A stretch of DNA of 64,000 bases from Auanema rhodensis (Eukaryota; Animalia; Nematoda). The position numbers and the translations under genes were made by a program. This document shows, piece after piece, positions 16,513 through 39,766 of the stretch. The notes under the pieces are model-generated. The model was given only the letters and a program-made list of their open reading frames with translations, did not search any database and was not told the origin of the DNA. The stretch covers positions 26,288,001-26,352,000 of the forward strand of contig OZ059900.1 of NCBI GenBank assembly GCA_964057225.1, given 5' to 3'. Every line of letters begins with the position of its first letter. Within the stretch, counting starts at the first letter, position 1.

Positions 16513-16532
16513 TACAATTACAAATTTAAACA

Positions 16533-18410
16533 TCCATTGTGGATATGGCACCGAGTTGCCTCTTTAACAAGGTTGTATTGGTTTTTAAAACCAATTTTTC
16601 TCCATCCATAACGAGTCCGCGAACCAGTCGCTCTATACTTTCAAAGTTTACCACTGACGCTGCCGTGTGGTCCAACGTCTGAAAATTATAAAATTATTTG
16701 AAAAGTTAAAGCTCGTACTTACCACTCCCTTTGCCTTTGTTACATATTTTACATCACCAGCTGCATTTACAAGTTTATAACTATAAACTTTTGCCGCTGG
16801 TGACACAAACTTGGTCATTGGATATATTTCACGGTTTATCAGCCTAGACACCAAGAAATGTTTGACAAAGCGTGAACCATTATGCGCTATCAAAATTGCA
16901 TTATCATTCTCAACAGAGTTGAGTAACCAATCAAGGAAACGATCTGTTACAGACCATTCACTATCACCTTGTTGATACCCAAAATGGCCCTCCTTGGTTG
17001 TGCATTTTTCGCATGAATTGGCATCTATACAACTTTTACAAAATTTGTTATACACAACGATATTGGGCCATTGTTCATCTGCATATTCATGAACATTTGT
17101 ACCGTTTTTTAACACAACCGTTTCAAAGTCATAAAATATAATCTTAAACAAGTAAGTATTACACTTGTAAAGATGTTAAATACAAACCTTGTATTTTTCT
17201 TGCCTCTTTTTTAACTGATCCTTCTTCTTGTCGTTAGGTGGTACCCAACAACAAGAATAATCTTCAGGCTTTGTTTGCCCACACTTTTTGCAAAATTTCT
17301 CATTGCAATTGTGTGGTCTATCAGCACGTACTCTGTGATAACGATCACAGTTTTCACATGTCTGAATTTAGTCTTGTATAATTTTATATATATTTTTTAA
17401 ATTACCTTAAACATTTGACATGTTTTTCTAATATGCCTGTCAAAGCATTGACGAGTTTTAAACAAAACTCTACAACTATCACATCTTATGCTACTTTCAA
17501 CCACATTTTCCATCGAATTACATTTTAAGGTGTGGCATTTCTTACACTTGGCTTTACATCTATGCAACACTGTTTTGTAAGAAAAGTTGCAGTGTTGGCA
17601 TATAATACCATCAAAAAGCTGTGATCTACTACAAGTTGTAATACAGTCATAATGATTATTTCGGTAGCTTAGTGTTACCACTTTGCTAGCCGTTTCATTA
17701 AAGATACGGTGAATAGCGTACATACGCTGTCCAGGTGGCCTAGCGTATACTACAAACTTATAGTCTGTATTACAACTTGCAATAATATTTAAATGGTTCA
17801 AATTATAATTTGGTAAATGTACAGAAATACCACACCTATTTAATAAATTGATATGATGTGGTTGATTTGGCAACAAGATGTAGTTGCGACGAAGATTTTG
17901 AATCCTCCGCTTCTCAATTACATCTTCTGCTGCCTCTTCATCGGCTTTCCACATTCCCACAACTGCTGCTCTAGCCAGGCAATGTGTATCAGTGTTCTCA
18001 ATTGTGCCAGGTATTTTGAGTTCGGCATCAAAATAGAAACCAACTCTACCTTCACCAGTCATCAGGCTTGGCTGCACTGGTCTCTCATCAAACACATACA
18101 TTTCAATATTCATTGCCTGGCTAATTACAGCCTCTCGCTTTGATTGCTGCACCTTGCTGATGGCATTCATAATGGCAACGCCATCCAAATGCTCCCTTCT
18201 ACGGAAATCCATAAATATGGATCCCTTTTCGAAGGATGGGTGCTCTATTGATAAACAAAATAGTGCTTTTTGTTTATCTGGCACACCACTTTCAGCAAGG
18301 CACCGATCAAGGAACTCATTAAATAGCCGCGGCATGACAACATGCATTGGCTCATTAATATTTTCCAAATGTGGGAATGTGAGCGATCTAACGACCACGC
18401 TGGGTGGTTC
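16533..18410 (-). pseudogene. Maverick/Polinton protein-primed DNA polymerase B, internally deleted copy
   Basis: Cys-rich N-terminal region, YDFETV (ExoI) and IAHNGSRF (ExoII) joined directly to FVSPAAKVYSY/KAKG; ~940 bp of the right-arm copy is missing. Confidence 0.85.
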
Positions 18411-19675
18411 TCGAGGAGTGTTAAGTCTACTTTTATTCTCTATTCTTTCATTTTGTCTTTTAAAACATACGTTTGCCGTATGTCCTTTTTTATTACAGTA
18501 CACACAATTAATTTCATTATTATTGGTGTTTCTCACTCTTCTCTCATCGGAGATATGTGGATAATGTTTCCGGCTCAAGTTTTGTTTCTGCTCGGATTCA
18601 ATGGATTGATTGATTGAACGAGTTAACTTATTTCGTTCACATCTGAGGGCGATTTGTTTTACTTTTTCGTAAATTTCTTCGTCCTCCTCATCCTTTATTT
18701 TTTCAAGGATGGAAACTCCACAAGAACAGTTACAAAGTTCTTGGTACAGTTTAATAGCTCTTTCGAACAATAATAAACCAGGAATCAAATCTGGATTAGC
18801 CAGTTGAGTTAGTTTTTCTAACTCATCGCAGTAATTTACCAACGACTGGGATCTATTCCATTTTAAACTTTTCAAGTTTTCAGTAGCCTGCATCTTCCTT
18901 GTCTTTGTGAAACGGTTGACTCTCTACGTAAACTGTTCACTATGACATCTAAGGAACTTTGCTTTATGGCTTCAGGTAACTCTCTGTAGCGGTTTCTGAT
19001 CTCGCCTTGGAGTTTATTGAGGAATAAAAGTTTTTTTTCACGTTGAGAAAAAACATCATCTGGGTATTTATAGTTAAATCGTTTTGTGAAATCAACGAAT
19101 TCACTATACGATCCACCCATATAAGCCGCAACCTCAGGTAATAACTGGGCTTTTATGAGTTTTGCAACATCATTGAAGGACTCACCTTGATAACTGCACT
19201 CTTGGCTGAAGTTTTCTTTTTTTCTTTTTAAGCTTTCTAGCTGTAAAGAAGAAAAAGATTTATTAAGTTTAAAATCCGTTAACGAACCTTTTTGACTATC
19301 TGTAATTGACAGATTCATAATTTTTTCATCGGTTACTTGTTCAACCTGTAAAAAATTATGTTTAACATTATGATTAATCAAATTTTCAATTTTAATCAAA
19401 ACATTATCTTTGTTAGAATCACAGATTTTGTGGATCTGATTTAACAAATCAATCTCTTTTTGAAAACTTTTTATTTCAGAACTAGAAATTTTTAAACTCT
19501 TAGCTATTTTAGCTAGATTTTTCTCGGCATCGACTCTTGGTCTACAACCGGTTTTAGTATGATTTAAAATCGAACTTTGAGCAAAAGATAAAATGTTTTC
19601 TATATTACTCTTAAATTTATCAAAATTAAAAGGTAGTCTTACCTCGTTTATCTCGTTATCCAGTTCCTCACTCAT
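18411..19675 (-). pseudogene. LTR-retrotransposon gag (Gypsy/Cer-like) with CCHC knuckle, fused in frame to the pPolB N-terminus
   Basis: ORFs 18872..19675 and 17397..18893 are split by a 1-nt loss (right arm GGAAGAATGCAG, left GGAAGATGCAG); CVYCNKKGHTANVC zinc knuckle; PBS upstream. Confidence 0.75.
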
Positions 19676-20072
19676 GATGGAGTTATAGGCAATGACTGTT
19701 TGTCAACTGGAAACAAAATTATTAGTTTTCTATACGAAAAAATAATTTAAATTATTGTCAAAAACAATTCTATACGAACAATGACAAAAAATTTTGATTT
19801 CTTCTCGCAATCAAAGGTGAAAGTTTCAACTCTCTCAAGTTTCTCCGAAAAAAAATTTTGTTAACACCTAATCAGTGTTTAGCAAAATTTTTTTTGTTTT
19901 TTCTCTTTTTTTTTTCACCAAAAATTTTATGAAAAAAAAAATTCAGAAAAAAATCGGAAAAACCCTATACGGGAGAGTTGTGACTAAATCACCAAGAGCT
20001 ATACGCTCAAAAATCGGTTAAGAAACTATACGTTTCCCTATTTAACAAAAAAACAATCAATCGAGCAGAGAA

Positions 20073-20087
20073 CCGGTTCGGCCCCCA
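20073..20087 (-). promoter_or_regulatory. tRNA-Pro primer binding site (copy 1)
   Basis: Reverse complement is TGGGGGCCGAACCGG, complementary to the nematode tRNA-Pro 3' end (...CCGGTTCGGCCC-CCA). Confidence 0.8.
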
Positions 20088-20364
20088 AGTCAAAAGACTG
20101 TATTGAAAAATCCAGATATGCATAAATCTATGCCAATTAACCTCTTAGTTAAATCTTCATGCATCTTTGAAATTATCTTGCTGCTTGTTAGCACTTCAAC
20201 ACCATTACTGTATACCCTAATCTAATCAGCACTCTCGACAATGCGGTTCTGATACTGTGAGAATATAACACTCTTCCGCTTAAACAAGAGTGCTGTATAT
20301 GAGATATGTGAATAAAGGTTTACTTTATCACCAAGCGCATGACATGAATCAATTTTTTCATACC

Positions 20365-21045
20365 TTTCGAAAGGGGGGTCCGGGGGTCACCCCCGGATCT
20401 CAAAGCTTATTTATATCGAGAAAACCTACGATATATAGGATCTATAACATGTTTTCAGTACTTTCGGAATGTACGAGAGAATAATAAGGTATATATTGTT
20501 ATGTGTAAAATATAATATTGTATATCTCAGCCTTTTTGGTAGTAATTAAAATATTCTGATTTGAGTATCTCTCTTTTATTATCGCATACGATTCCTGAAA
20601 TGAATGAATTGTGATAATCATACCACTCTTGAGATGATATATAGATTGTGGCCATACGAGTTTTGATGTATAACATTCTGATAATCATACCACTCTTAAG
20701 ATGATATATACATTGTGGCCATACGAGTTTTGATGTACAACATTCTGATAATCATACCACTCTTAAGATGATATATACATTGTGGCCATACCGCGTAACC
20801 ATGTGAACAGTAAATTGACTTTATAGTATTTGAATCAGAAGAAAGCGGGGGTGTGGGGGCGGCCAGCCCCCAATCTTAATTAAAGCATACGATTCCTGAA
20901 ATGAATGAATTGTGATACTAGAACCACACTTAAGATGATATACACATTGTGGCCATAGCGCGTAACCATGTGAACACTACATTTTCGTGATAGTATCTGA
21001 ACCAGAAGCAAGCGGGAGTGTGGGGGCGGCGAGCCACCACCATGT
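20365..21045. repeat. Repeat patch with 68-bp tandem units and GGGGGTGTGGGGGCGG...CCCCC hairpin motifs
   Basis: GATAATCATACCACTCTT at ~20612, 20680, 20748; duplicated block 20584/20885; G/C hairpin motifs at ~20372, 20846, 21012. Confidence 0.6.
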
Positions 21046-21060
21046 TTCTGAATCTCGCTT

Positions 21061-21098
21061 GCCTAAGCCTAAGCCTAAGCCTAAGCCTAAGCCTAAGC
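21061..21098 (-). repeat. Interstitial telomeric repeat (TTAGGC)6
   Basis: GCCTAA x6 joined to a truncated copy of the retrotransposon leader. Confidence 0.95.
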
Positions 21099-21207
21099 CC
21101 TATACGGGATAGTTGTGACTAAATCACCAAGAGCTATACGCTCAAAAATAGGTTAAGAAACTATACGTTTCCCTATTTAACAAAAAAACAATCAATCGAG
21201 CAGAGAA

Positions 21208-21222
21208 CCGGTTCGGCCCCCA
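21208..21222 (-). promoter_or_regulatory. tRNA-Pro primer binding site (copy 2)
   Basis: Same 15-mer; 19963-20217 is duplicated at 21098-21357. Confidence 0.8.
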
Positions 21223-21224
21223 AG

Positions 21225-22446
21225 TCAAAAGACTGTATTGAAAAATCCAGATATGCATAAATCTATGCCAATTAACCACTTAGTTAAATCTTCATGCATC
21301 TTTGAATTTATCTTGCTGCTTGTTAGCATTTCAACACCATTACTGTATACCCTATTTAAGAAAGTACTGCTCCTCCAACTTATGAGTGTCTTAGTTTTAT
21401 CAGTCATAAATCCTAAATCACCATAGACCCTGCACAGAAAATCAAAAAGTGTTCACTTTTATTAAGCAGTGTCTGGATTGTACCATCTCCCTTAGTGTGT
21501 AATTCTAGAGTAGCATCATCTATCATCACATTGACTTTGCATATATCAGATCCACTACTGATTTTAGCTCTCCTAGCACATCTAGATGTATATGCACATA
21601 TACATGAATGGATAATAGTGTCTAGTGAGCCAAACCATCCCTGTATTCCACCATTATTAAGTGTAGATATCATCCTTATACCCCTTCTATTGGTTACCAT
21701 CATTATCTTCTTGAAGAAATAACTAATTTCTCGGAATGGAGAGTACTCAAAAAGATCTAATATGATTTCTCTGGTTACATCATCACCAGACCAAGTCTCA
21801 CGAACTTTATTACCATATTTGCTGTTTTCACCTTAGGCGCTATATCTGATATTATTACCCATTCCCCTTCTGGCCTTATTAATCCATTACTAGTGAGTTC
21901 CTTAATGTCTCATCTGACTTGCTTCATAAATTTTTCATTAGACATAATAGGCCCTCTCACTATGGTATCCAGAAGTTCATTATTCCTGTGTCTGTGGGTT
22001 GGATCTATCTCCCTTGTAGCTTCTTCTATATTACTACTTATACGGGTAACATCATGTGCATCTAGATATGCAGTATCTGCATAATCTACCCACCTCAGAA
22101 GCTTCTTGAGGCTACATTCACCTAAGTCTTCATCAGGTATAGACACCTCAAGCCCTTGTAATAGTCTTTTCATCCAGGTCTTCTTCTTAACCTTATTATA
22201 GTTCTCAATATGAGGTGTAATGTCCCTGTCGTGGTATCCTTTGGTCTTTAAATGTCTTACCACAGCAACTAATAGATGCTCTTTCATGAACTTTATAAAT
22301 TCATCTCTAGTTTCCTGTTTAAATGGATTTCGAGAATTCATCTTAATATATGTGTTGACATGTAGGTCTTGTATACTACAGTCAGCTGTAGGTAATAAAT
22401 GGTATAGGTAACTAATACCGATCCTATGTCTCTCAGGAAATCCCAG
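21225..22446 (-). pseudogene. Endogenous RNA-virus RdRp fragment (left-arm copy)
   Basis: Reverse copy of ~33003-34320 with its own deletions; keeps a segment (DVTRISSN...NEKFM) missing from the right arm. Confidence 0.85.
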
Positions 22447-23009
22447 TATATTCTTAACAACAAATACTGGATGATTATCAACTACTTTTTGAATAATCAG
22501 AAATATTCTTCCAAAGTCATTTCTCAAAATACTCGAAACACAAAAAGATTTCCATTCTATGAAAATACATATGATATTTCTTAAAACTCCTCAGGTTGAT
22601 CACCATTATGAATTGACTTCAATTCTTCAACTTTTCGACAATATAATGGTAATTTGTTGTTGAATTCTAAGTAAACATTATAACAGTCATAGTTTTATTG
22701 AATTATCGCAAATTTAAACGAGTATTTTGTACTTCCTTGATGAACATCAATTTTTATAAACATCGCTCATTTGAAGACATATCAAAAACAACCAACTACA
22801 ATTTTCTCAATCGAGCAAGTGAAAAAAACGCTGAATATGTCACTCTTCCGGTAAGAATTTCACATATCATCACTTAATAACTAATTTGTGAATGTGATGT
22901 ATTCATTTGACCCACTCTTTTACAAAATTGAATCTATTATTTTGTATGAATATGTGATGTAGTCATTTGATTTCTTGAATAATCTCTAACGTATTTGAAA
23001 GTTATAGCC

Positions 23010-23276
23010 ATGAGATCTATGACTAAGCATAGGACTAAGTCTAAGCATGAGATCTATGACTGAGTATATGACTAATTCAAAGCATGAGATCTATGACTAA
23101 GCATATGACTAAGTCTAAGCATGAGATCTATGACTAAGCATATGACTTAGTCTAAGCATGAGATCTATGACTAAGCATATGACTAAGTCTAAGCATGTGA
23201 TCTATGACTAAGCATATGACTAAGTCTAAGAATGAGATGTATGACTAAGCATATGACTAAGCCTAAGCCTAAGCCT
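23010..23276 (-). repeat. 37-bp telomere-variant repeat ending in (GCCTAA)2-3
   Basis: Unit GACTAAGCATATGACTAAGTCTAAGCATGAGATCTAT; mirrored at 30731-30955. Confidence 0.92.
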
Positions 23277-24177
23277 GCAATGATTCCCTACAAGTTTTGC
23301 AGAGACGAATTGGTCTCATTAATACACTCTTTGGTGGAGTGCTCTCTCTCAGAATCTCCATCTGCTTCATTGGTGAATCTAAATTAAAGATTTAAAAAAT
23401 ACAAGTTAAGGTTCATACCAAAACTTGTAAAATTTGGAGCTGGTGTGGGTGGTCGTGGTACTTCAGGTTCTAGCGATTTGCGTGTAACAGTTGTCACATC
23501 AGCAAGTACAGCACGCTTCATTTCAGCTAAAAATCCAACTTTCTGAAAATCAAGACAAACTTGCAGAGAGGAGCAGTCTATGGCAATTGGCGAAGAGTGG
23601 CAAAAGATGGTGGAACGTCGGATCCTCGAATAGTTGGAGCTGAAATGTAAATGTAGCAAAATTGCCAACCTTTTATACGAAGACTTTTGTAAAGTACAAC
23701 CCATTGTGTTACAATCAAGTTTGCTGATGAAATTCTTTTATTAATTAGATTTTACAGCATATTTATGCAGATATACTCATCTCATCGACAGTTGCCAGCA
23801 GTTATCGCACTCTGAACCTGTAAACAATCTGCATATTAATTAGTTTTTACATCTCTTTAAACATTATTGTTTACCGTTTTTGCCATAAACAACAGTCATC
23901 TCTGTAAAACATTTAGGCTTTTTAAACTTTGCTTAATAGCTCATGTTTTTTTCATAGTTTATTAACCCTCGATATGCGTGGCGTTAAGTTCAGCGCAACT
24001 GTTCGTTAATCTTATTGTATTTACCTTCAATGTGTGCTCTATTTAGTTATTGTATTGTTATATTAGTAAAATAAAGTTTGAAACTATTCCATCTTTTATT
24101 ATAATTTGAAACTTTTACTTGTTACAATAAATATAATTAATAACAAATCGTAATTTCAAAAAATAATAATTTAATGT

Positions 24178-24325
24178 CGTTCTTATCGAATTAACCTTCG
24201 ATATGTGTTCCATTAAATTTTGTATTTCATATCGTTCTTATCGAATTAACCTTCGATATGTGTTCCATTGAATTTTGTATTTCATATGGTTCTTATCAAA
24301 TTAACTTTTGTGTTCCATTGAATTA
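24178..24325. repeat. ~55-bp tandem repeat, ~2.7 copies
   Basis: CGTTCTTATCGAATTAACCTTCGATATGTGTTCCATT repeated. Confidence 0.8.
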
Positions 24326-24932
24326 CCCATAACAAGTACAGTGAACAAAACGATATACATGCAAAAATTTTATTGTTCTTTGAAATTAAAGTAAAATAGA
24401 ACAAACACAATATAATAAAGTAATAAACAAAATGAGTGAACAAACATAATAAATAAACAAATATAATTAATAAATATAATAAATGAAAGAAGAATTATAT
24501 AAAATGTAAAATCAACTTTAAATATTTCAAATTTAAATAAAATTTAAATATTTTTAAATTTATATATTTTTTTCACTTGATATATTTAAAAATTAATTAA
24601 AATATATGCATACATTTGAAAAAGCATATTTGAATTTGATTTGAAAAAAAAGTACGGTGAACAAAACGATATACATGCAAAAATTTCTTGTTCTATTGTT
24701 CTTTAAAATTAAAATAAGATCGAACAAACACAATATAATAAAGTAATAAAGATGAGTTCGCCGAAGTCGGTGGTCGTCGGGGCCGAGGACCTCTCAAAGC
24801 CTTGGGGTGCCATGGCGTGGTACGCGGCGGAGCAGGCCGGGCCGGATGGGAGGGCCGAGGGGTCGCACTGAGTACCAGTGGTCGCGTGGGGAGGGGGGGG
24901 GTAACAAAGTAACTGCCCAGCGGATGAACGTT

Positions 24933-24986
24933 CGCGAAAAGAGCGTGAGCCCCTCACCTGCTTGCGGGGCTCACGCTCTTTTCGCG
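24933..24986. other. Perfect 21-bp-stem hairpin with 12-nt loop inside a GC-rich island (~24757-25035)
   Basis: CGCGAAAAGAGCGTGAGCCCC-tcacctgcttgc-GGGGCTCACGCTCTTTTCGCG. Confidence 0.9.
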
Positions 24987-27429
24987 GGGCGTTAGGAAGA
25001 CGGGTGAGGAGAGTTGGAAACCCCCGGCGCCGTAGAAATACTCCACATCTATGGATCTGAATAACTATGTAATCATATATAAAAAAATTACTTATTTCCC
25101 CATAGAAATGCAGAATTAGCCACGGTTATGTCATTCTGAATTTTTTTTTGAGTTCATCCAATGATCCATCAAGGCCCTATCAATATCGTTCTCATGTTTC
25201 ATAACGTAACACCTAACGAGACGACATTCAGAACTTGAATTAAAAATAATTAAAAGTAAGATAAATTAAAAACAAACAGTATCCATGTTCCACATAGCCC
25301 ATGAAATGTGTTGTTGAAGCTTGTTTAGTATATATTATATTTTTAGATGGCTAATGCAGAGAGTGGTGAGCTTTTAGAAGATCAGATAAAATCTCTGATT
25401 AATTCTTTGTCTGATGAGACAGTGTCGAGGAAACGCATATGGAGCATGGCTAACAAATGGCTGGAAGGATCACACACGAAGGTAAGTGAAACGAAAAAGA
25501 GAAAAAATGAAACAGATATGTTTTTCTGAGCCACCAGTGGGAGCAGCGGCTCTGGCCAGGAAGGATTCAAAAGGTAAATGCACTTCATTGTGTGAGCAAA
25601 GCGGTTATGTTGGATTCTGGATCTATAGTAAGTTTTTGGTTTTGGTCTGAGAAATTATTTGATTTTAGGATTATGTGTTCAGCTGCCTGCATTATTTCAT
25701 GGTGATAATTAGGTTTTTTCCCCGACTAGTGCCGTGTTGCTCCACGTTCTGGTACAATCCGTTACGATCGAATTAAAACGTAAGGAAATCTATGGCTACT
25801 AGACTTAGGAATGTTTTGGGTTTAGGAGAAAAAGGCAGGATCGTGGTAGGTGTCTCATGAAGTATTTAATGTGACGTATTTGTCATAGAGGACCAATTAT
25901 TTCAATGGAGTTATAACCACTACCTGTAACAGAGGGAAGTCCATGATTGATTTATCATAATTGATTAGATTCCTGTATCAGAGCTCCATATTCTGAAATG
26001 ACAACATATGTTAGAAAAATATATTTTACCTACCCTCCATTAGCTCTATTTTCTGTAGACTTTCATGGAACATATCCTTCGTAATGTTCTTCATGATTAA
26101 TACCAAATCCACGAGTTTCAGGATTGACGCAGAATGTTCAACGACACTCCAAGAAGAAGATAAGATAAATAGTTACCTACTTGCATGTTCCCTTTTTTTT
26201 TTTGCCTCCTTCGGAGCATCAACAGCCACAATTGTACCCTTATCCCTTTCAGTTTCCGCTTCAACATTGACGACTACAGCGTCTTGCAATTCCTGGCCCC
26301 CAGTATCGCTTCCTAAACTGGGTACACCAATATCCTGAAAAGAAAAAAATTTATGAAAAATGGGAATGAAAACAAAAAAACCTCCACAATGTGCTTAGGC
26401 ATCTTATTTTTGGTACAGCTTGGTTCAGCGGCCCTTTTACGGGTTGATGGGGGGCAACTGGAAGCAAACAATCTGTCTCATTAATAACTTGCGTACCGAA
26501 AAAATTCAGGAATTCCGTGTACGCGTCTTCCTGAGACTCAGGAAGCCGGTAGGTTTGCTCTAACAGCGCTTCCCATTTAGCCTCATCTAGAAAACAAAAA
26601 TAGCATAGTAAATGTTGGCGCCAAGATTGTGATGTGTTCATCAACAACAATTCAGCAATTAACAATTAAAAGTTGAAAGTTTATTTGAAATGATTTATTG
26701 AAACAAAAAATGGATGAAACTCTGTACGATACACAAATTTTTTAAAATTAGTTAAAGAATTAAAAATAAGTTAACCTTTTTTTTATTAATACGCCTTTTG
26801 ACTTTGAACTCCTCACAAAGATTAGCTAAAATATTCTCCGGTACCTTTCCGAAACAGAGATGCTCGTTTTGAACAAGATATGTTTTTTTATCTTTAGGAC
26901 ACTTTATAAAACAGCCTTTGGCATCCAATGTGAAACTTATGACCCTTTCGGGACACATAAACCAATTTTTTAGTGGACCGGAGACTATGTACACTTAACA
27001 TTCAATTTAACAAGGAGCATTCTCCTGATAGCGGGAGGATTTACGAAGAAAATTTTTTTCAATTACTTACAACATTGGTTGTTGTATCAAATTCTCTTGT
27101 CGAGTTGTCCACTTTATCCCTCTCTGTACCAGGAGTACACTGCAAAACTTTGAAATATGTCACAACATATATTTAATTATTACCTTAGCAACAGTTAAAA
27201 AACTTCGCGTAGTAGATCTTGAAGACGTCGTTTTCGTTTCAGATGAGCTGGAGTATGAATCGTTCTCCTCCTCTTCCAAACAAAACCTTTTGGGCATAAC
27301 GCCATTCGGTGAGAAATTGGATTTTATTCTCTATAAATAGATCAATGATCATAACATCAACGTTAATTTTATTATACCTTTTTTTCTAAAGGAATTAGCG
27401 GATGAGGAAGAAACGGCAGAAGCAGCCGG

Positions 27430-27520
27430 AAGTGGATACACCGTCAGGAGTGGATACATCGTCAGGAGTGGATATATCGTCAGGAGTGGATACATCGGCA
27501 GGAGTGGATACATCGTCAGA
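27430..27520. repeat. 18-bp minisatellite (CGTCAGGAGTGGATACAT) x~5
   Basis: Direct inspection; reads as D(D/V)STP repeats in ORF 27395..27658. Confidence 0.85.
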
Positions 27521-29355: not shown

Positions 29356-30007
29356 CAGACATGTCGCAGACTTGAGCCGTTGTTATGTCAATGCGTTGCT
29401 TTTTAACATACAGAACAACGGTTGGACAGTTGAAGACTGTAAAGATCTAATTAAATATGATGTTGCTTTGCGTCATATAGCTGAGCTGAGAAGTGCTTTT
29501 CAACGGGTCATTCCAAAAAAAGCAAGACGCAAAAATGTGCGTGCTTACGTTTTATACGGAGATACTCGTACAGGCAAATCATATTTTGCCAACTCATTCT
29601 TAGTTATAAAAAGTTTTTGATCAATAACATTTATTATTCGATTTGTTTTTCAGGAGATGATTGTTATACAGTTGCAGCGGATAATTCTGCATATTTTGAG
29701 AGTGAGTTATCCTGCATGTTTGAAGAGTAATAAATTCGTAATTGTCGTTTCAGAATATAATGATGAAGACTCAATTGTGATAGAAGAAGTAGTTCAATTC
29801 GGACAACGTGGTTATATGTCATCACGACCACACTTACTTCTATGTTATGATGGAGTATGTCGGTATGTGTTTTTTGTGAGATGCTCAATAAAACTAATTT
29901 TTTTAAGCTTGAATGTGAAATTCTCAAGTTGCACTATATATGCAACCAAAATTTTTTTACTTTCGAACTTTCATCCAAGAGAATGGTTTCCGGGAGATCC
30001 AGAGACG
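29356..30007 (+). pseudogene. Intron-containing CRESS-DNA-virus Rep-like SF3 helicase domain
   Basis: Walker A YVLYGDTRTGKS; after splicing 29702-29753 (GTGAGT..TTTCAG) AYFEKYNDEDSIVIEE (Walker B); after splicing 29863-29907 RLNVKFSS...KIFLLSNFHPREWF (motif C). No clear HUH domain seen. Confidence 0.7.
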
Positions 30008-30730
30008 GTGATAGATTTTTATTATTTAAGCATTGCATTCAATTCCTCTTGTTGAAATAACAGACTTCTATAATTTCAACTTCTAGAGATCACTTCTATC
30101 GTTCTCTCGTTCTTGATTTTTTGAGTTTTTGATAAGCTGGATGTAACCTGAACTTGTGTTCGTTAGTTACGAATAAGTTCTATATACTTGAGCTTGGGTT
30201 TAATAGTTACGAAAAAGTTTGATATACCTAAACTAGAGTTTGATAGTTGGGTTTTTGTTTTTCAGTGATTTTCTGATTGGTTATACTACTTATATTCCAC
30301 ATCTCATTCGTTTGTCAACTTTTTTTCGCGAGATACAATGAAAAAACACCAACATTTACATTTCAGCTCCAACTATCCGAGGATCCGACGTTCCACCATC
30401 TTTTGCCACTCTTCGCCAATTGCCATAGACTGCTCCTCTCTGCAAGTTTGTCTTGATTTTCAGAAAGTTGGATTTTTAGCGGAAATGAAGCGTGCTGTAC
30501 TTGCTGATGTGACAACTGTTACACGCAAATTGTTAGAACCTGAAGTACCACGACCACCCACACCAGCTCCAAATTTCACAAGTTTTGGTATGAACCTTAA
30601 CTTGTATTTTTTAAATCTTTAATTTAGATTCACCAATAAAGCAGATGGAGATTCTGAGAGAGAGCACTCCACCAAAGAGTGTATTAATGAGACCAATTTG
30701 TCTCTGCAAAACTTGTAGGGAATCATTGCA

Positions 30731-30955
30731 GGCTTAGGCTTAGTCATATGCTTAGTCATACATCTCATTCTTGGACTTAGTCATATGCTTAGTCATAGAT
30801 CACATGCTTAGACTTAGTCATATGCTTAGTCATAGATCTCATGCTTAGACTAAGTCATATGCTTAGTCATAGATCTCATGCTTAGACTTAGTCATATGCT
30901 TAGTCATAGATCTCATGCTTTGAATTAGTCATATGCTTAGTCATAGATCTCATGG
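30731..30955 (+). repeat. (TTAGGC) seed followed by 37-bp telomere-variant repeat
   Basis: GCAGGCTTAGGCTTAG then TCATATGCTTAG... Confidence 0.92.
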
Positions 30956-31840
30956 CTATAACTTTCAAATACGTTAGAGATCATTCAAGAAATCAAATGA
31001 CTACATCACATATTCTTACAAAATAATAGATTCAATTTTGTAAAAGAGTGGGTCAAATGAATACATCACATTCACAAATTAGTTATTAAGTGATGATATG
31101 TGAAATTCTTACCGGAAGAGTGACATATTCAGCGTTTTTTTCACTTGCTCGATTGAGAAAATTGTAGTTGGTTGTTTTTGATATGTCTTCAAATGAGCGA
31201 TGTTTATAAAAATTGATGTTCATCAAGGAAGTACAAAATACCCGTTTAAATTTGCGATAATTCAATAAAACTATGACTGTTATAATGTTTACTTAGAATT
31301 CAACAACAAATTACCATTATATTGTCAAAAAGTTAAAGAATTGAAGTCAATTCATAATGGTGATCAACCTGAGGAGTTTTAAAAAATATCATATGTATTT
31401 TCATAGAATGGAAATCTTTTTGTGTTTCGAGTATTTTGAGAAATGACTTTGGAAGAATATTTCTGATCATTCAAAAAGTAGTTGATAATCATCCACTATT
31501 TGTTGTTAAGAATAAAGCATTCGATAATACTATAAGCAAACATTTTTTTTAAACTTTTCTGTTTATTCAAAAAATAGTTATTATTGAACTACTAATAGTT
31601 GTCAAAAATGAAGTACTCGATCATTAAATCTTGTTGCTCATATGTTGGGATATCATCAATACGTGACATTTCGCAAAAGGAATGGTAATTAAACCAAAGA
31701 TTTTTAAACTCTTAGCTATTTTATGCTACTCTAGAATTACACACTAAGGGAGATGGTACAATCCAGACACTGCTTAATAAAAGTGAACACTTTTTGATTT
31801 TCTAAAAAATCTCTGGTTTAATTACCATTCCTTTTGCGAG

Positions 31841-34320
31841 ATGTCACGTATTGATGATATCCCAACATATGAGCAACAAGATTTGATGATCATGCTCAGT
31901 TCTTTTTTGCTTTGCAATGATAAGAAAGGTTTTGATAAGGTTCAATCATTGTTATCTAACATTAATGGGAACAAACTTAAATGGGATAAAGAACCTTATT
32001 ATCTTGGCCTAACGGGTGAGAAGCTACAACTAATAGAGGTAGGCGATGGGTTTAAAGAGGATGTATCAGATATACACTGGGAAGGCTTCCTCAATTCAAT
32101 GGGCTACTTAGATTCAAAACATGACAATGGTAGATATGAATCATCTAAATTTGTATCATTCTTGACTAAGGAAATTATTCGCAAACATAAAATCAAAGAG
32201 ATATATAGTGATGAAGATGCTAGGTACAGGTTACTATATAGATCATATTTCTCTAAGGATTTTGAATCAGAAATCAATACAGATCAGGGAGGAAAAGCTA
32301 AGGGAAGTTTCATGACATCTCTCATACAGTTGCCTATGTGTAACTTAAGTATGCCAGGTATAAGTAAATGGATTGATGAATTCTTGACAAACCCATTGTT
32401 AGATGATGATAATAGACGCTTATACTCAGTTACAACTATGTGGAAGAAAATCCATAACTGTGGTTTAAGTGCTAATCAACGAGAGGTGCTTAAGAACAGC
32501 TATTTATTTGATCCCTCAGTGGAATTTGACAAGCTAGTTGACCTAATGGAAGTTACTGGAAAACTTAGATTACCTAAAAGTCTTAAGTTATATAAGAGTG
32601 GGAAAGTGATGTTACTTGTAGATGTTACAGGACATGAAATGTTTATAATAACACAATCCTCAGGAAATATATTATATAACTATACAACCTCTGCTTTTAA
32701 TTGGAGATTCTATTCAAGAATGGACAGGGGGATAGGCCTTTGTGGAAGAATTAGAGATCCTATTGAAAACTACCATGACATTGGCTTTGAGTGGATTAAG
32801 TCTGCAATGGAATATTGCAAGATATTCAACAGAAGGGTTTGTGTTATTACGAAGTGCATGAAAATTTCCAGCTCTGTTGCTCAGCTAACAATAAACAAAG
32901 GAAGTGAACTAGCTGAAACTGGCTCTGAGGCTAAGAAAAGAGTTTTAGAACAAGAAATCTTTGAGTTAATGCCTGACTTTACTCCATGGCACTGCATACT
33001 TCAGGGATTTCCTGAGAGGAATAGGATCGGTATTAGTTACCTATACCATTTATTACCTACAGCTGACTGTAGTATACAAGACCTACATGTCAACACATAT
33101 ATTAAGATGAATTCTCAAAACCCATTTAAACAGGAAACTAAAGATGAATTTATAAAGTTCATGAAAGGGCATCTATTAGTTGCTGTGGTAAGACATTTAA
33201 AGACCAAAGGATACCACGACAGGGACATTACACCTCATATTGAGAACTATAATAAGGTTAAGAAGAAGACCTGGATGAAAAGACTATTACAAGGGCTTGA
33301 GGTGTCTATACCTGATGAAGACTTAGGTGAATGTAGCCTCAAGAAGCTTCTGAGGTGGGTAGATTATGCAGATACTGCATATCTAGATGCACATGAAGTC
33401 AAGCAAGTCAGATTAGACATTAAGGAACTCACTAGTAATGGATTAATAAGGCCAGAAGGGGAATGGGTAGTAATATCAGAGATAGCGGCCAAAGCTGAAA
33501 ACAGCAAATATGGTAATAAAGTTCGTGAGACTTGGTCTGGTGATGATGTAACCAGAGAAATCTTGTCTGAAATTGACAGGAATGTTTCATTCCTTATGCC
33601 AATAATTCCAGGTGCAGCTATGAAAAGACCAGTTCCTTCGATTTCACAAGCATTAAGATCATCATCTAGAGAAGGATTTCTAGGGAATAAAGATGGGAAA
33701 GTTATTTTATTCAGTAGCCAAGATGTATCTTCGTGGTCACCTTCCCAGGACAGGAAATACATGTGCCAGTTATATCAAATCATATTAGATCTTTTTGAGT
33801 ACTCTCCATTCCAAGAAATTAGTTATTTCTTCAAGAAGATAATGATGGTGACCAATAGAAGGGGTATAAGGATGATATCTACACTTAATAATGGTGGAAT
33901 ACAGGGATGGTTTGGCTCACTAGACACTATTATCCATTCATGTATATGTGCATATACATCTAGATGTGCTAGGAGAGCTAAAATCAGTAGTGGATCTGAT
34001 ATATGCAAAGTCAATGTGATGATAGATGATGCTACTCTAGAATTACACACTAAGGGAGATGGTACAATCCAGACACTGCTTAATAAAAGTGAACACTTTT
34101 TGATTTTCTGTGCAGGGTCTATGGTGATTTAGGATTTATGACTGATAAAACTAAGACACTCATAAGTTGGAGGAGCAGTACTTTCTTAAATAGGGTATAC
34201 AGTAATGGTGTTGAAATGCTAACAAGCAGCAAGATAATTTCAAAGATGCATGAAGATTCAACTAAGAGGTTAATTGGCATAGATTTATGCATATCTGGAT
34301 TTTTCAATACAGTCTTTTGA
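31841..34320 (+). pseudogene. Endogenous negative-strand RNA virus RdRp (qinvirus/Muvirales-like), 763-aa ORF plus a frameshifted tail
   Basis: AKAENSK..KVRETWS (motif F), QDVSSWSP (A), GGIQGW...DT..HS (B), MIDD (C), frameshifted YGDLGFMTDKTKT (D), TFLN (E); intronless; 3'-truncated. Confidence 0.82.
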
Positions 34321-34322
34321 CT

Positions 34323-34337
34323 TGGGGGCCGAACCGG
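34323..34337 (+). promoter_or_regulatory. tRNA-Pro primer binding site (copy 3)
   Basis: TGGGGGCCGAACCGG, followed by a ~400 bp leader and the gag ATG at 34734. Confidence 0.8.
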
Positions 34338-34733
34338 TTCTCTGCTCGATTGATTGTTTTTTTGTTAAATAGGGAAACGTATAGTTTCTTAACCTATTTT
34401 TGAGCGTATAGCTCTTGGTGATTTAGTCACAACTCTCCCGTATAGGGTTTTTCCGATTTTTTTCTGAATTTTTTTTTTCATAAAATTTTTTGTGAAAAAA
34501 AAAGAGGAAAAACAAAAAAAATTTTGCTAAACACTGATTAGGTGTTAACAAAATTTTTTTTCGGAGAAACTTGAGAGAGTTGAAACTTTCACCTTTGATT
34601 TCGAGAAGAAATCAAAATTTTTTGTCATTGTTCGTATAGAATTTTTTTTGACAATAATTTAAATTATTTTTTCGTATAGAAAACTAATAATTTTATTTCC
34701 AGTTGACAAACAGTCATTGCCTATATCTCCATC

Positions 34734-35530
34734 ATGAGTGAGGAACTGGATATCGAAATGAACGAAGAACGAAATTTTGATTCTTTTAATTTTAATTATT
34801 ACCTGAGGTTGCGGCTTATAAGGGTGGATCGTATAGTGAATTCGTTGATTTCACAGAACGATTTAACTATAAATACCCAGATGATGTTTTTTCTCAACGT
34901 GAGAAAAAACTTTTATTCATCAATAAACTCTAAGGCGAGATCAGAAACCGCTATAGAGAGTTACCTGAAGCCATAAAGCAAAGTTCCTCAGATGTCATAG
35001 TGAACAGTTTACGTATAGAGTCAACCGTTTCACAAAGGCAGGGAAGAATGCAGGCTACTGAAAACTTGAGAAGTTTGAAATGGAATAGATCCCAGTCGTT
35101 AGTAAATTACTGCGATGAGTTAGAAAAACTAACTCAACTGGCTAATCCAGATTAAATTCTTAGTTTATTATCGTTTGAAAGAGCTAATAAACTGTACCAA
35201 GAACTTTGTAACTGTTCTTGTGGAGTTTCCATCCTTGAAAAAATAAAAGATGAGGAGGACGAAGAAATTTACGAAAAAGTAAAACAAATCGCCCTCAGAT
35301 GTGAACGAAATAAGTTAACTCGTTCAATCAATCAATCCAATGAATCCGAGCAGAAACAAAACTTGAGCCGGAAACATTATCCACATATCTCCGATGAAAG
35401 AAAAGTGAGAAACACCAATAATAATGAAATTAATTGTGTGTACTGTAATAAAAAAGGACATACGGCAAACGTATGTTTTAAAAGACAAAATAAAAGAATA
35501 GAGAATAAAAGTAGACTTAACACTCCTCGA
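34734..35530 (+). pseudogene. gag remnant (right arm; large deletion, stop codons)
   Basis: MSEELD start, CVYCNKKGHTANVC; mirrors 18411-19675. Confidence 0.75.
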
Positions 35531-38335
35531 GAACCACCCAGCGTGGTCGTTAGATCGCTCACATTCCCACATTTGGAAAATATTAATGAGCCAATGCATG
35601 TTGTCATGCCGCGGCTATTTAATGAGTTCCTTGATCGGTGCCTTGCTGAAAGTGGTGTGCCCGATAAACAAAAAGCACTATTTTGTTTATCAATAGAGCA
35701 CCCATCCTTTGAAAAGGGATCCATATTTATGGATTTCCGTAGAAGGGAGCATTTGGATGGCGTTGTCATCATGAATGCTATCAGCAAGGTGCAGCAATCA
35801 AAGCGAGAGGCTGTAATTAGCCAGGCAATGAATATTGAAATGTATGTGTTTGATGAGAGACCAGTGATACACATTGCCTGGCTAGAGCAGCAGTTGTGGG
35901 AATGTGGAAAGCCGATGAAGAGGCAGCAGAAGATGTAATTGAGAAGCGGAGGATTCAAAATCTTCGTCGCAACTACATCTTGTTGCCAAATCAACCACAT
36001 CATATCAATTTATTAAATAGGTGTGGTGTTTCTGTACATTTACCAAATTATAATTTGAACCATTTAAATATTATTGCAAGTTGTAATACAGACTATAAGT
36101 TTGTAGTATACGCTAGGCCACCTGGACAGCGTATCTTTAATGAAACGGCTAGCAAAGTGGTAACACTAGGCTACCGAAATAATCATTATGACTGTATTAC
36201 AACTTGTAGTAGATCACAGCTTTTCGATTGTATTATATGCCAACACTGCAAATTATCTTACAAAACAGTGTTGCATAGATGTAAAGCCAAGTGTAAGAAA
36301 TGCCACACCTTAAAATGTAATTCGATGGAAAATGTGGTTGAAAATAGCATAAGATGTGATAGTTGTAGAGTTTTGTTTAAAACTTGTCATTGCTTTGACA
36401 GGCATATTAGAAAAACATGTCAAATGTTTAAGGTAATTTAAAAAATATATATAAAATTTAACAAGACTAAATTCAGACATGTGAAAACTGTGATCATTAT
36501 CACAGAGTACGTGCTGATAGACCACACAATTGCAATGAGAAATTTTGCAAAAAGTGTGAGCAAACTAAGCCTGAAGATCATTCTTGTTGTTGGGTACCAC
36601 CTAACGACAAGAAGAAGGATCAGATAAAAAAGAGGCAAGAAAAATACAAGGTTTGTAATTAACATCTTTACAAGTGTAATACTTACTTGTTTAAGATTAT
36701 ATTTTATGATTTTGAAACGGTTGTGTTAAAAAACGGTACAAATGTTCATGAATATGCAGATGAACAATGGCCCAATATGGTTGTGTATAACAAATTTTGT
36801 GAAAGTTGTATAGATGCCAATTCAAGCGAAAAATGCACAACCAAGGAGGGCCATTTTGGGTATCAACAAGGTGATAGTGAATGGTCTGTAACAGATCGTT
36901 TTCTTGATTGGTTACTCAACTCTGTTGAGAATGATAATGCAATTTTGATAGCGCATAATGGTTCACGCTTTGACATACATTTCTTGGTGTCTAGGCTGAT
37001 AAACCATGGAATATATCCTGATCCAATTTTAAATGGGACCAAGATTATAAGCATGGTTGGCAGTAAACTATTTTTTACAAATTGCCGCACTTGTGCAGTC
37101 AAAAGTAAAAATGTAGCATGTGAGCACCAAAATGATGTAAATGCTCGAAAGCTGCATCTAACCGTGACACATGTTGAGCTCGAGTGTGCCATACAACATG
37201 GCTATAAAGTGCTTCATGTGCATGAGGTGTGGCACTGGGAAGAATGGCAGCAAGGCGGCCTGTTTAAAGAGTTTGTACAAAAGTACATAAAAATTAAACA
37301 AGAGGCGTCGGGCTGGCCAAAGATGACAGAGGAAGAAAAGGTATGTTTTCATAAAAGTATCACATTAAATAGAATTTTACAGATGATATATCTCCAAGAA
37401 CACGAGGTGAACACTGGTGTTGCTCTGGAGAGCAATAAAATTGAAAAAAATGCTGCCATGCGTAGCATTGCCAAACTGCAGCTAAATAGGTTTGTAAACT
37501 TTTTAAAACAATACATTACGAATTTGCTTATAGTGTCTGTGGTAAAATGGGTCAAAGACCTGATAAAGCCCAAACCAAGATTATTGGTGTTGAGGACCCA
37601 GAAATTCGTAGGATCATTACTGATCCTGCAAGGGAACTCACTGGGTTCAAAATTGTGGATAATGTTTCGTACTGCACAACAGTACCAGAGTATTCACATT
37701 TGGCACCACCGCATTTTACAAATGTAGCTATTGCGGCCTATACAACCGCTCATGCAAGGCTACTATTGTATAAGGCAATGGAGAAAAATGGAAAGAATTT
37801 AGTGTATACAGGTAATTTCATACTTTGTATACAATTTAAACATACATCATTTAGACACGGATTCACTAATTTATCAAAGATGCCTAGATGAGCCTGATTC
37901 AATTGAGGATATGAAGGGTGAATGGTTAGGTAAACTAACCTCTGAAATACCCGATGGTTGGTCAATGACCAAGTTTGTGTCACCAGCGGCAAAAGTTTAT
38001 AGTTATAAACTTGTAAATGCAGCTGGTGATGTAAAATATGTAACAAAGGCAAAGAGAGTGGTAAGTACGAGCTTTGACTTTTCAAATAATTTTATAATTT
38101 TCAGACGTTGTACCACACGGCAGCGTCAGTGGTAAACTTTGAAAGTATGGAGCGACTGGTTCGCGGACTCGTTATGGATGGAGAAAAATTGGTTTTAAAA
38201 ACCAATACAACCTTGTTAAAGAGGCAACTCGGTGCCACATCCACAATGGATATGACAAAAAGTACTAAAGTCGTAATGGATAAACTTTGTTATCTACAAG
38301 ATTATAGTACTTTACCCTACGGTTATTGTGTTTAA
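35531..38335 (+). pseudogene. Maverick pPolB with spliceosomal introns, internally deleted
   Basis: YDFETV, IAHNGSRFD, KIKQEASGWP; splicing 37490-37533 restores KLQLNSVCGKMGQR and splicing 37812-37854 restores YTDTDS; TLPYGY at the end; ExoIII/motif A region missing. Confidence 0.9.
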
Positions 38336-38475: not shown

Positions 38476-39190
38476 TTACAAACTGGTATCAATATATGGA
38501 GCACGATTGTTGTCAATGGAAAGAATAGAGTCATACTCTGCATAAACAATTGCATCTTGATTGAGCAAATGTACATCGCTGATATCTACTTTCAAATTTG
38601 GAAACTCCTCCTTTAATGTAGTATCCTTGTTTTCATTATTCCAGCCTAGAGTGTCAATTAAAATATTATCACGGTTTGGATATGCAGTTAGCTCCATTTT
38701 TGAATAGTTTACAAACAGTCGCTCTTGATTAAATAGGTCGATACTGACGGGAGCAGCCATCTCACACAATATGCCATTTTTTACAAGCGCTTGACGCGTT
38801 CTAAATCCAGCACTGGATGCATTATCTATATATCTATCAGCATAATAGCCTGATATGGCAAGTTTGCTCTCTTTAACATCGTTGCTATACATTAAAATAT
38901 TCTCGATATATGTTTTATAGGCATGATTCACGGTAGAGTCATACACGCTAACATCGCCAATTTTCAAATGATAAGAATGTATTAAACTGGCAGCAAATTG
39001 TTGACATGGTGCAAAAACAAGGTTGTCTGGTACTGGATCACCGTTTGTGGTTACAATTTTAAATTTTACATTCAACCAACATCTTCTCAGATTGAGGAAT
39101 GATTTGGAATTTTGAGCTATAACAAATTCCCATGGTCCTTGAGGAAAAAACGTTTTTTTCAAAGGGACTTGTACAGTACGAGTAGACTCT
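38476..39190 (-). pseudogene. Maverick major capsid protein, internally deleted
   Basis: GPWEFVI, AYKTYIENILMYS, GYYAD, SIDLFNQERL and C-terminal IVYAEYDSILSID, as in Polinton MCPs; too short for a double jelly-roll. Confidence 0.75.
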
Positions 39191-39194
39191 ACAC

Positions 39195-39761: not shown

Positions 39762-39766
39762 AACGT

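Follow-up and report, generated by a model that had tools for sequence, protein, structure and literature searches.

Does the large palindrome in this repeat-rich region of the Auanema rhodensis genome store fragments of past invaders as a source of small RNAs, as the initial annotation proposed, or is it the scar of a rearrangement, which that annotation gave as the neutral alternative? The palindrome, which is imperfect and spans 21.7 kb, is real in the assembly, and the evidence appears to favor the second answer over an invader-memory library. We think it reasonably probable that the palindrome goes back to one inverted segmental duplication, by fold-back or by template switching, a young, one-off event in a transposon graveyard, that it has since decayed neutrally, and that it is not a dedicated small-RNA locus.

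The window (the whole stretch of 64,000 nucleotides that was analyzed) holds a mariner, a DDE_3/Tc1-like piece, a Tc3-like HTH, a LINE-like RT, an R2-like LINE, a Maverick, a gag-like piece, and a qinvirus-like fragment. About eight invader classes can thus be named, roughly the nine or so first counted. Two further palindromes reported for the window are also confirmed, at 44272-46671 and 59375-63276.

Structure of the palindrome

The description of a palindrome at 16533..38251, with two arms of 7-8 kb around a 6.7-kb spacer, is upheld by inverted blocks that are 96-99% identical (16532 to 23654 against 38251 to 30352; Table 1). About 5.3 kb can be aligned between the arms, in nine colinear blocks with 5,170 matches, 108 mismatches, and 24 gap columns, a substitution level of 2.05%, and there are seven large indels, each private to one arm. 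Perfect arm-arm runs of at least 23 bp number 68 and cover 4,731 nt (the longest is 387 bp), and the inverted repeat is therefore predicted to be capable of forming long dsRNA. Divergence is roughly uniform across the nine blocks (p 0.18, chi-square), as a single duplication event predicts. The outer, multi-copy part is nonetheless more diverged than the inner part (2.45% vs 1.47%; post hoc p 0.014), so that on a one-event reading something further must be assumed, for instance ectopic conversion by other copies of the family.

Table 1. Features of the palindrome and its flanks (window coordinates)
Feature	Position	Strand	Remarks
Filler, 18 bases	16514..16531		between last satellite monomer (16362-16513) and left arm
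Left arm	16532..23654	-	7,123 bp; derived inverted copy
Maverick-type protein-primed DNA polymerase B (pPolB), left-arm copy	16678..18383	-	further 930 bp missing relative to right arm
Gag-like open frames (P0004 and first ~170 residues of P0002)	18400..19702	-	one CCHC knuckle
Left-arm-private insert, 875 bp	20220..21099	+	multi-copy; ends in (GCCTAA)x6.5
RdRp fragment, left-arm copy	21264..22443	-	residues ~384-850 (tblastn); N-terminal part missing, frame broken
37-bp minisatellite	23009..23268		near left arm's inner end; mirror at 30732-30954
Spacer	23655..30351		6,697 bp; matches no family; tandem repeats of 55 bp and 18 bp
Right arm	30352..38251	+	7,900 bp; continuous with flanking Maverick remnant
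Qinvirus-like RdRp fragment, right arm	31841..34300	+	residues 1 to ~850 of ~1,880 (HMMER, tblastn map)
Gag-like, right-arm counterpart	~34707-35570	+	500 bp missing
pPolB, right arm	35573..38072	+	residues ~60-613, then ~966-1304 of 1,323
Right flank	38476..41346		likely remainder of degraded Maverick; leads only
Capsid-like frame	38476-39219	-	Atlas lead
P-loop ATPase-like frame	40639-41346	+	weak Walker-A Pfam matches, E 0.002-0.005

The inner boundary is sharp: the spacer ends, aligned locally, score 11 where shuffles give 11.3 +/- 1.7, and inverted microhomology at the exact ends, judged by eye, amounts to 0 bp. One contig of run X5 begins 18 nt inside the arm end, a lead only to a pre-existing short inverted repeat. 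Within the spacer we found no internal inverted repeats and no Pfam match at E 0.01 or better except a weak PPV_E1_C (E 0.0088), and public contigs of three studies match it with 0 differences. Its contig depth, which is the summed depth of public-run contigs and not a copy number, is the minimum of the stretch (24380-28400; 6-9 in most bins of run X1, with one bin at 87), compared with 20-57 and 400-1400 in most bins of the arms; this suggests that the spacer is single-copy. None of the public contigs listed bridges an arm-spacer junction, and the assembly is thus the sole basis for the large-scale inverted arrangement.

The outer junctions differ from each other. At the left, the 18 filler bases have no match in the satellite array or in the arm, and this junction looks like a repair scar beside satellite DNA. 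Public contigs reaching 16532 and 16820 continue like 38252-38267 and 37944-37962, respectively; hence the arrangement usual for the family is that of the right arm and its flank, and the boundaries on the left are private. The outer palindrome ends show neither a target-site duplication nor a shared terminus. A direct duplication of 260 bp borders the 875-bp insert of the left arm; its two copies (19960-20219 and 21095-21354) form a near-star pattern with the right arm (2, 4, and 1 private sites), making the duplication roughly as old as the palindrome. The 37-bp minisatellite recurs at 59.9-64 kb of the window.

Viral and transposon fragments in the arms

Each arm had been said to string an RNA-virus RdRp, a PBS, a gag, and a DNA-virus pPolB in one orientation pointing away from the spacer. 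Both polymerases are present in both arms, the gag assignment is tentative, and the PBS was not recovered. All three fragments do point away from the spacer; this agreement of 3/3 is not significant, as its chance is at least 1 in 4, rising to 1 in 2 should virus and gag have come in together.

The RdRp assignment is carried by 127 HMMER matches at E 1e-3 or better (the best 4.3e-56) and by the tblastn map. Named relatives include Xinzhou nematode virus 3 (E 7e-49) and Hubei qinvirus-like virus 1; the fragment is colinear from residue 1 with qin-like virus polymerases at 24-26% identity, and its translation contains the I-D-D triplet, which we take to be a qinvirus hallmark. Host repeats lie on both sides, the fragment ends at residue ~850, and DNA contigs of three studies cover it; it qualifies as an endogenous viral element, apparently of Qinviridae-like origin. 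The libraries searched held no close exogenous relative. The right-arm region includes a 781-codon open frame (31787-34129), which is long for a pseudogene, although by our rough estimate the probability of its chance survival since the duplication is about one third. The arms differ here by 3 synonymous and 8 non-synonymous changes and 2 stops, both stop-creating differences being in the left-arm copy. Colinear RdRp homology links the fragment to the nematode qin-like viruses of the Xinzhou nematode virus 3 clade, as described in PMC12770441, whereas what we see here are truncated, frame-broken genomic copies.

Support for the gag-like stretch comes from a C-X2-C-X4-H-X4-C knuckle in the translation and from its best PDB match, the Arc zinc knuckle (E 0.31, knuckle only); neither a Pfam family, Gag/capsid or other, nor a database relative was found, and the predicted model is all-helical at low confidence (pLDDT 41.5). 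Further copies exist elsewhere, and their contigs diverge from the window at 18399. ARAGORN found no tRNA genes in the 64-kb window. A degenerate tRNA-3'-end pattern had 0 matches in the arms and 5 in the window, vs 3.7 expected by chance; this pattern detects a long PBS, and a short one lies outside its reach without a host tRNA set.

The pPolB matches Pfam PF03175 (E 1.2e-10), is internally deleted according to the tblastn map, and has relatives from Caenorhabditis (E 1e-28, 38% identity). Its alignment with Caenorhabditis pPolB proteins links it to the Maverick/Polinton elements of nematodes, whereas the copies here are truncated and frame-broken. Contigs that are at least 95% alike cover 16704-18319 at a summed depth of 400-1400, which suggests that this part belongs to a highly multi-copy family. 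The pPolB frames of the two arms differ by 3 synonymous and 18 non-synonymous changes. A retroviral-type integrase (rve family) was not found among the 81 window frames of at least 90 aa, nor were Maverick terminal inverted repeats identified in this copy, a degraded one cut off at pPolB residue ~60. The frames of the right flank score 0.98 in the Atlas to clusters that partly carry PF21738 DJR-like_dom (11%-39% of members) and whose commonest phylum is Nematoda or Mollusca; as capsid and ATPase they had no PDB match, and a single-sequence model was unusable (pLDDT 28.9). The right arm is likely the end of a resident degraded Maverick and would run on into the Maverick remainder.

Over all coding parts, the arms differ by 6 synonymous and 26 non-synonymous changes and 2 stops. 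These differences look neutral, and neutral coding decay says nothing about use as a source of RNA.

Origin of the inverted copy

On alignment, the arms are sister copies of a segment made up of the minisatellite region, the qinvirus-like RdRp, the gag-like piece, and the internally deleted pPolB. A depth step at ~18320, together with contigs that part from the window sequence at 18399, 20103, and 20224, indicates that the pieces of an arm belong to different families. Among 40 listed variant sites (92 more exist), the two arms share a state that differs from the public contigs at 22, the left arm alone differs at 17, and one is unaligned; the shared states make the arms sisters within larger repeat families and not independent insertions. 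The inferred history would have begun with a break or stalled fork left of the present spacer; by fold-back priming or by a switch of template, synthesis would have moved to the opposite strand at 30352, and copying would have run outward for ~8 kb. End joining would then have linked the new end to satellite DNA, the 18 filler bases marking this second junction, between the left arm and a satellite monomer; the 875-bp templated insertion and the 260-bp back-step may have occurred at about that time. The arms have since been eroded by large deletions and an insertion that are private to one arm or the other.

Comparable structures are described in human DNA. PMC3907307 gives fold-back inverted duplications with spacers of 766-70,466 bp (median 3,428), a range that includes the 6.7-kb spacer, and these likewise have inverted copies around an unduplicated spacer of a few kilobases, an outer junction to unrelated DNA with inserted bases, and a templated insertion within the copy. 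The same text reports inverted microhomology of 2-8 bp at 13/21 junctions; the Auanema structure differs from the human cases described there in having none at the spacer ends, in duplicating ~8 kb and not megabases, and in being fixed in a nematode assembly.

Two other origins have to be weighed against a fold-back duplication. An assembler may have joined diverged haplotypes, homeologues, or family copies in inverted orientation; alleles or homeologues would also show 2% divergence and private indels, none of the listed contigs bridges the inner junctions, and the maximum share of sampled words in any public run is 0.63. The two forms of a 128-bp indel, whose occurrence in public runs counts in favor of the duplication, are nevertheless listed in different runs (the left form in a 362-nt X6 contig with 0 differences, the right form at X1 and X5 joints that skip 127 bp) and could thus be alleles or strain variants. 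Such an artefact is improbable, given that the arms are separated by a unique 6.7-kb spacer and that the left arm has its own filler junction to satellite, whereas a fold-back read error would give near-identical arms and no spacer. Depth over the RdRp part is also ~2-3 times that of the spacer (X1, X5), which fits at least two copies per spacer copy, with the caveat that depth is not copy number. It seems very improbable that a composite mobile element inserted twice independently, or that one giant element bearing terminal inverted repeats of 7 kb (e.g., a Maverick-like one whose repeats carry pPolB) inserted once. Protein-primed elements do have terminal inverted repeats, pPolB does lie at both outer ends, and the depth of the RdRp-gag region in X1 exceeds two copies' worth. 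Yet depth varies by one to two orders of magnitude within an arm, and the spacer looks single-copy, so that the 21.7 kb cannot be a single family; no element ends at the right boundary, the outer ends lack the duplication or common terminus sought there, and the arms share 22 of the 40 listed states against other copies.

The palindrome as a possible source of small RNA

A fold-back origin leaves the question of function. The palindrome might be transcribed as a long hairpin whose RdRP-amplified Dicer products silence the Maverick family, the gag-bearing element, and qin-like viruses, which would make it a selected or exapted memory of invaders working, by analogy, like maize Mu killer or the Drosophila hpRNA genes. 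The arms could pair as long duplexes along their perfect runs, and silencing targets exist in that a highly multi-copy family resembles the pPolB part to at least 95%. Precedents can be cited from three reports: transcribed palindromic repeats of C. elegans are Dicer substrates unless ADAR-edited (PMC7084138), nematodes that lack piRNAs show few 22-23-nt two-strand transposon siRNAs, the dsRNA source being left open (PMC4323106), and Mu killer, an inverted duplication of a transposon piece that occurs naturally, is read as a hairpin of ~4 kb (PMC3440606). We nonetheless consider an invader memory unlikely. The arms lose kilobases asymmetrically, the loop is 6.7 kb long and full pairing needs a transcript of >20 kb through satellite-flanked repeats, the shared orientation of the fragments is not significant, and the structure is fully explained without function. 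C. elegans, moreover, treats such hairpins as self to be masked and not as a library (PMC7084138). Double-stranded RNA is predicted only where a single transcript runs through both arms and the loop, while divergent transcription from the spacer would yield two sense RNAs and no duplex. Any dsRNA from the palindrome would be a Dicer substrate, its match to the multi-copy Maverick family being a by-product.

Known systems show how far the resemblance goes. Mu killer (PMC3440606) likewise arose naturally as an inverted duplication of part of a transposon gene, and ~2.7 kb of multi-copy pPolB lies in the arms of the Auanema palindrome. For Mu killer the hairpin transcript, siRNAs, and heritable silencing are documented, whereas the Auanema palindrome, with its 6.7-kb loop, is described here at the DNA level. 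The C. elegans ADAR-edited palindromes and the viral genes silenced through ERI-6/7, including viral DNA polymerases (PMC7084138), offer a parallel to a nematode inverted repeat with viral-type DNA polymerase fragments; the palindromes described there are mostly short, non-coding transposon hairpins inside genes, however, and their siRNAs appear mainly upon loss of editing, as masked self and not as an immune library. The siRNA master loci of house dust mites (PMC5805368) and piRNA clusters are, like the Auanema palindrome, compact catalogues of several invader classes; master loci are defined by their small-RNA output from both strands. A young fold-back might act as a Mu-killer-like master hairpin, its read-through dsRNA, matching the Maverick family, the retroelement, and a qin-like virus, feeding Dicer and RdRP as the missing primary trigger, although we hold this to be a long shot. 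Master loci appear to be absent in piRNA-less nematodes, according to PMC5805368, and such a hairpin would be a master locus in a lineage where these loci are thought not to occur.

Structure and divergence of the palindrome

The initial annotation had described a large palindrome here, and the structure is real: an inverted-repeat search, together with blastn between the halves, recovered colinear inverted blocks, from the outermost (16532-16820/38251-37963) to the innermost (23037-23654/30964-30352), at 96%–99% identity and with a gap of 6,697 bp between the arms. Aligned globally, the nine blocks have 5,170 matches and differ by 108 substitutions (67 transitions and 41 transversions), with 24 gap columns, or 2.05% divergence, and there are 68 perfect arm-to-arm runs of at least 23 bp, the longest of 387 bp. 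Divergence does not differ significantly from block to block (p 0.18); the outer multi-copy part stands at 2.45% versus 1.47% for the inner part (post hoc p 0.014). At 23654/30352 the homology of the arms stops abruptly, and the two ends of the spacer are not similar (score 11; null 11.3 ± 1.7). Frames of an equal 117 codons that cross each inner boundary had hinted at hidden spacer-end homology, a candidate rejected because no similarity is found there.

Features of the palindrome and of the rest of the window (window positions; depth, summed contig depth in public run X1, a ranking of regions and not copy number)
Feature	Position	Extent or depth	Remarks
Left arm	16532-23654
Spacer	23655-30351
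Right arm	30352-38251
Spacer part	24380-28400	depth mostly 6-9 per bin, 87 in one	exact matches in three studies
Left-arm part	18320-22763	depth 20-57	one bin, with telomere-like repeat, far higher
pPolB part	16704-18319	depth 400-1400
Satellite monomer	16362-16513	depth about 700,000
RdRp-like open frame (P0001)	31787-34129	781 codons	right arm
pPolB, right arm	35573-38072	residues ~60-613 and ~966-1304	left arm covers less
Gag-like CCHC-knuckle frame			between RdRp and pPolB pieces
Right-arm-private segment	37030-37963	930 bp	absent from left arm
Right-arm-private segment		215 bp	absent from left arm
Right-arm-private segment	31514-33004	1,490 bp	absent from left arm
Left-arm-private segment	19144-19644	500 bp	absent from right arm
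Left-arm-private segment	21924-22052	128 bp	absent from right arm
Left-arm-private insertion	20220-21099	875 bp	multi-copy, non-coding
R2-like frame	54442-59469 (also 49550-53266, 46670-48146)	region holding a frame of 1,177 codons
28S rRNA fragment	58361-58975	model positions 2392-3002
18S match	58907-59469		gapped
Satellite array	1-4987	period about 167 bp
Satellite array	11328-14016 (and monomer 16362-16513)	period about 176 bp
LINE-like RT	14138-16115		minus strand
Second palindrome	44272-46671	824-bp arms, 752-bp spacer	arms 99% identical
Third palindrome	59375-63276
37-bp minisatellite	22999-23276, 30729-30964, 59375-64000
Mariner/Tc3-type region	5305-8936		between satellite arrays

Viral and transposon fragments in the arms

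The annotation of the arm contents proved largely right. RNA-virus polymerase (RdRp) sequence is present in both arms, as had been claimed: a HMMER scan of the right-arm frame P0001 against 1.84 billion representatives returned 127 proteins at E 1e-3 or better (best 4.3e-56), mostly of 1,600–2,000 residues and matched over their N-terminal ~800, and tblastn aligns right-arm 31841-34300 with viral residues 1 to ~850 and left-arm 22443-21264 with residues ~384-850. Two of the ten best relatives carry names, as RdRps of Xinzhou nematode virus 3 and Hubei qinvirus-like virus 1 (eight are nameless), and three of the ten relatives scanned match Mononeg_RNA_pol weakly. Searches of P0001 against Pfam and PDB gave no match, and a word-index search for longer proteins found nothing. 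Its translation holds an I-D-D triplet close to the end of the frame, which we take to fit the qinvirus motif C. The open stretch of this virus-derived frame is long by the standard of a pseudogene and suggests recent integration. A clade of qin-like viruses that infect nematodes, centred on Xinzhou nematode virus 3, has been published (PMC12770441). The frame begins upstream of the residue aligned with viral residue 1, and its left-arm copy is broken.

The pPolB (protein-primed DNA polymerase B of Maverick type) was borne out by Pfam PF03175 and by 40 longer relatives, the best of them Caenorhabditis proteins of about 1,320–1,400 residues. The annotated "gag" is plausible but unproven, since its frame has a CCHC knuckle while the region has no family match and no relatives in a 5.8-billion-protein set; a PBS was not found in our search, and that element of the annotation stands unconfirmed. 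The RdRp, gag-like, and pPolB pieces do all point outward from the spacer, as described. A right-flank frame is placed by the Atlas with double-jelly-roll-like clusters (0.98), of whose members only 11%–39% carry the corresponding Pfam family; the capsid-like cluster is Nematoda-rich, and a P-loop frame is also present in this flank. PDB searches with the capsid-like and ATPase-like frames gave no match, and a single-sequence model of the capsid-like frame (pLDDT 28.9) was too poor for a fold search, so these identities are leads only, with which the flank fits the remainder of a degraded Maverick. The model of P0004, the left-arm gag-like frame, was of similarly low quality (pLDDT 41.5). Among 95 short frames (50–89 aa) of the locus, Pfam yielded one weak match, BDV_G (E 0.0039).

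Origin, decay, and possible small-RNA role

Eleven public DNA runs from three studies contain part of the stretch, and contigs from four runs were compared over 16300-28400 (left arm and most of the spacer). Summed depth in X1, used here solely to rank regions and not as copy number, differs so widely along the arm that the arm is a patchwork of families that vary greatly in abundance. Other copies have contigs that part from the window at 18399, where gag and pPolB meet, and at 20103 and 20224. Among 40 listed variant sites (92 more fall outside the list), the two arms share a state that the contigs lack at 22, the left arm alone differs at 17, and one is unaligned, which makes the two arms mutual closest relatives within larger families. 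Contigs reaching the left outer end (16532) continue identically to the right flank (38252-38267), and those reaching the 930-bp deletion point (16820) continue identically to the right arm (37944-37962), indicating that the right boundary is no family discontinuity and that the left boundaries are private. Depth and this continuity of the right boundary led us to reject giant terminal repeats of a single element. For the 128-bp indel, the left form is present in run X6 (0 differences over 362 nt), and a joint in runs X1 and X5 omits 127 bp, resembling the right form; both versions therefore occur outside this assembly, though listed in different runs. Run X12 (presumed RNA, possibly DNA) holds three short contigs, not assignable to this locus, that touch the satellite monomer, the outer pPolB end, and 23292-23339; a 44-nt skip indicates that the pPolB-end contig derives from another family copy.

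The left arm adjoins a lone monomer of the 176-bp satellite, an array of which lies at 11328-14016. The 18 bases that separate monomer and arm match neither side, and the junction has the appearance of a filler insertion, typical of end joining. Also in the left arm, a multi-copy repeat is represented by an 875-bp piece with (GCCTAA)x6.5 at its end, and a 260-bp arm segment lies on either side of this piece; these two copies and the right-arm original form a near-star pattern (2, 4, and 1 private sites), which dates the back-step duplication to about the age of the palindrome. The unduplicated 6.7-kb spacer, canonical right side, filler outer junction, and templated back-step insertion together suggest a single event, either break-induced or based on replication. 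At 30352, fold-back priming or a template switch onto the opposite strand would have been followed by copying of about 8 kb, with at least one excursion, and by capture of the new end by satellite DNA. The spacer lies inside the range given for sequenced human fold-back duplications (766–70,466 bp, median 3,428, 20 of 21 under 15 kb) in the data drawn from PMC3907307. Inverted microhomology at the spacer ends, expected for fold-back, was not seen, which counts against the simple fold-back version. On balance, the best explanation is that the palindrome is probably an inverted duplication, young and neutral, within a graveyard of transposons and satellites. An assembly mis-join as its source is unlikely, and a mobile composite is very improbable.

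Differences between the arms number 3 synonymous, 8 non-synonymous, and 2 stop-creating in the RdRp frame, 3 synonymous and 18 non-synonymous in the pPolB frames, and 7 synonymous and 8 non-synonymous in the gag/pPolB frame; with the kilobase-scale private deletions, this is the pattern expected of unconstrained DNA. An editing trace, sought as an A-to-G excess between the arms, was not found (A>G 14, G>A 13, T>C 18, C>T 22).

The initial annotation read the palindrome as a candidate hairpin small-RNA locus holding a memory of invaders, and any transcript spanning both arms would indeed form long dsRNA. This idea seems reasonable but generic in light of several precedents. Transcribed palindromic repeats of C. 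elegans are ADAR-edited and give rise to siRNAs chiefly upon loss of editing and of ERI-6/7, and ERI-6/7 has viral DNA polymerase genes among its targets, according to PMC7084138. It has also been reported that piRNA-less nematodes have low-level two-strand 22–23-nt siRNAs on transposons, with the dsRNA source treated as an open question in the pertinent passage of PMC4323106, and master loci are apparently absent from such nematodes in the portion of PMC5805368 bearing on this point. In maize, Mu killer is presented in PMC3440606 as a chance inverted duplication of a transposon piece turned silencer. No sequence feature marks the present palindrome as selected, and the outward orientation of the fragments carries no special meaning, since transcripts diverging from the spacer would be two sense RNAs that form no duplex. 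A functional hairpin siRNA source is unlikely. Should the locus be nothing but a scar, it cleanly illustrates how spacer-bearing inverted duplications arise and decay in the repeat-rich DNA of a probable nematode, and it documents a qinvirus-like polymerase fragment joined to debris of a retroelement and a Maverick. Its transcription, if it occurs, would be relevant to the primary dsRNA source for siRNA/RdRP transposon silencing in piRNA-less nematodes, as framed in PMC4323106, and the 108 arm-distinguishing substitutions make an RNA-based test of the arms straightforward.

Other repeats in the window

Only in run X5, a contig of depth 170 matches 23637-23958, starting 18 nt inside the left arm's inner end and running into the spacer; in X1 and X6 the depth of this interval is single-copy. 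The repeat end in X5 may represent a pre-existing short inverted homology at the fold-back point. The 875-bp repeat has hairpin motifs rich in G/C and, internally, a 67-bp tandem repeat, and its telomere-like tract is oriented as a 3' tail. GCCTAA/TTAGGC is the nematode telomere unit, and the repeat may be a telomere-primed retroelement or else mark a healed break. This tract, the Caenorhabditis proteins closest to the pPolB, the Nematoda-rich capsid cluster, the Tc3-type HTH, and the RdRp fragment's relative from a nematode virus all suggest that the host is a nematode.

The R2-like frame has R2 retrotransposon proteins as its best PDB relatives (E 1.8e-21), with one alignment extending to residue 1091. 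It lies just upstream of the 28S fragment and the 18S match, and the whole resembles a LINE specific to rDNA within a stray rDNA fragment. The copy at 46670-48146 is a 99%–100% identical repeat of the frame's 3' end, and this truncated fragment adjoins the right end of the second palindrome, whose spacer holds a 42-bp tandem repeat and whose arms each contain the same ~110-codon frame, of no family. The third palindrome contains oppositely oriented arrays of the 37-bp minisatellite that also occurs towards the inner end of each arm of the large palindrome, and looks like a foldback-type repeat. The second satellite array is interrupted by the LINE-like RT, and in three runs the summed contig depth of its monomer (a ranking measure) exceeds that of the spacer about 100,000-fold. 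The interval from one satellite array to the other holds a mariner transposase frame (Transposase_1, HTH_48), a DDE_3 piece, and a Tc3-type HTH frame.
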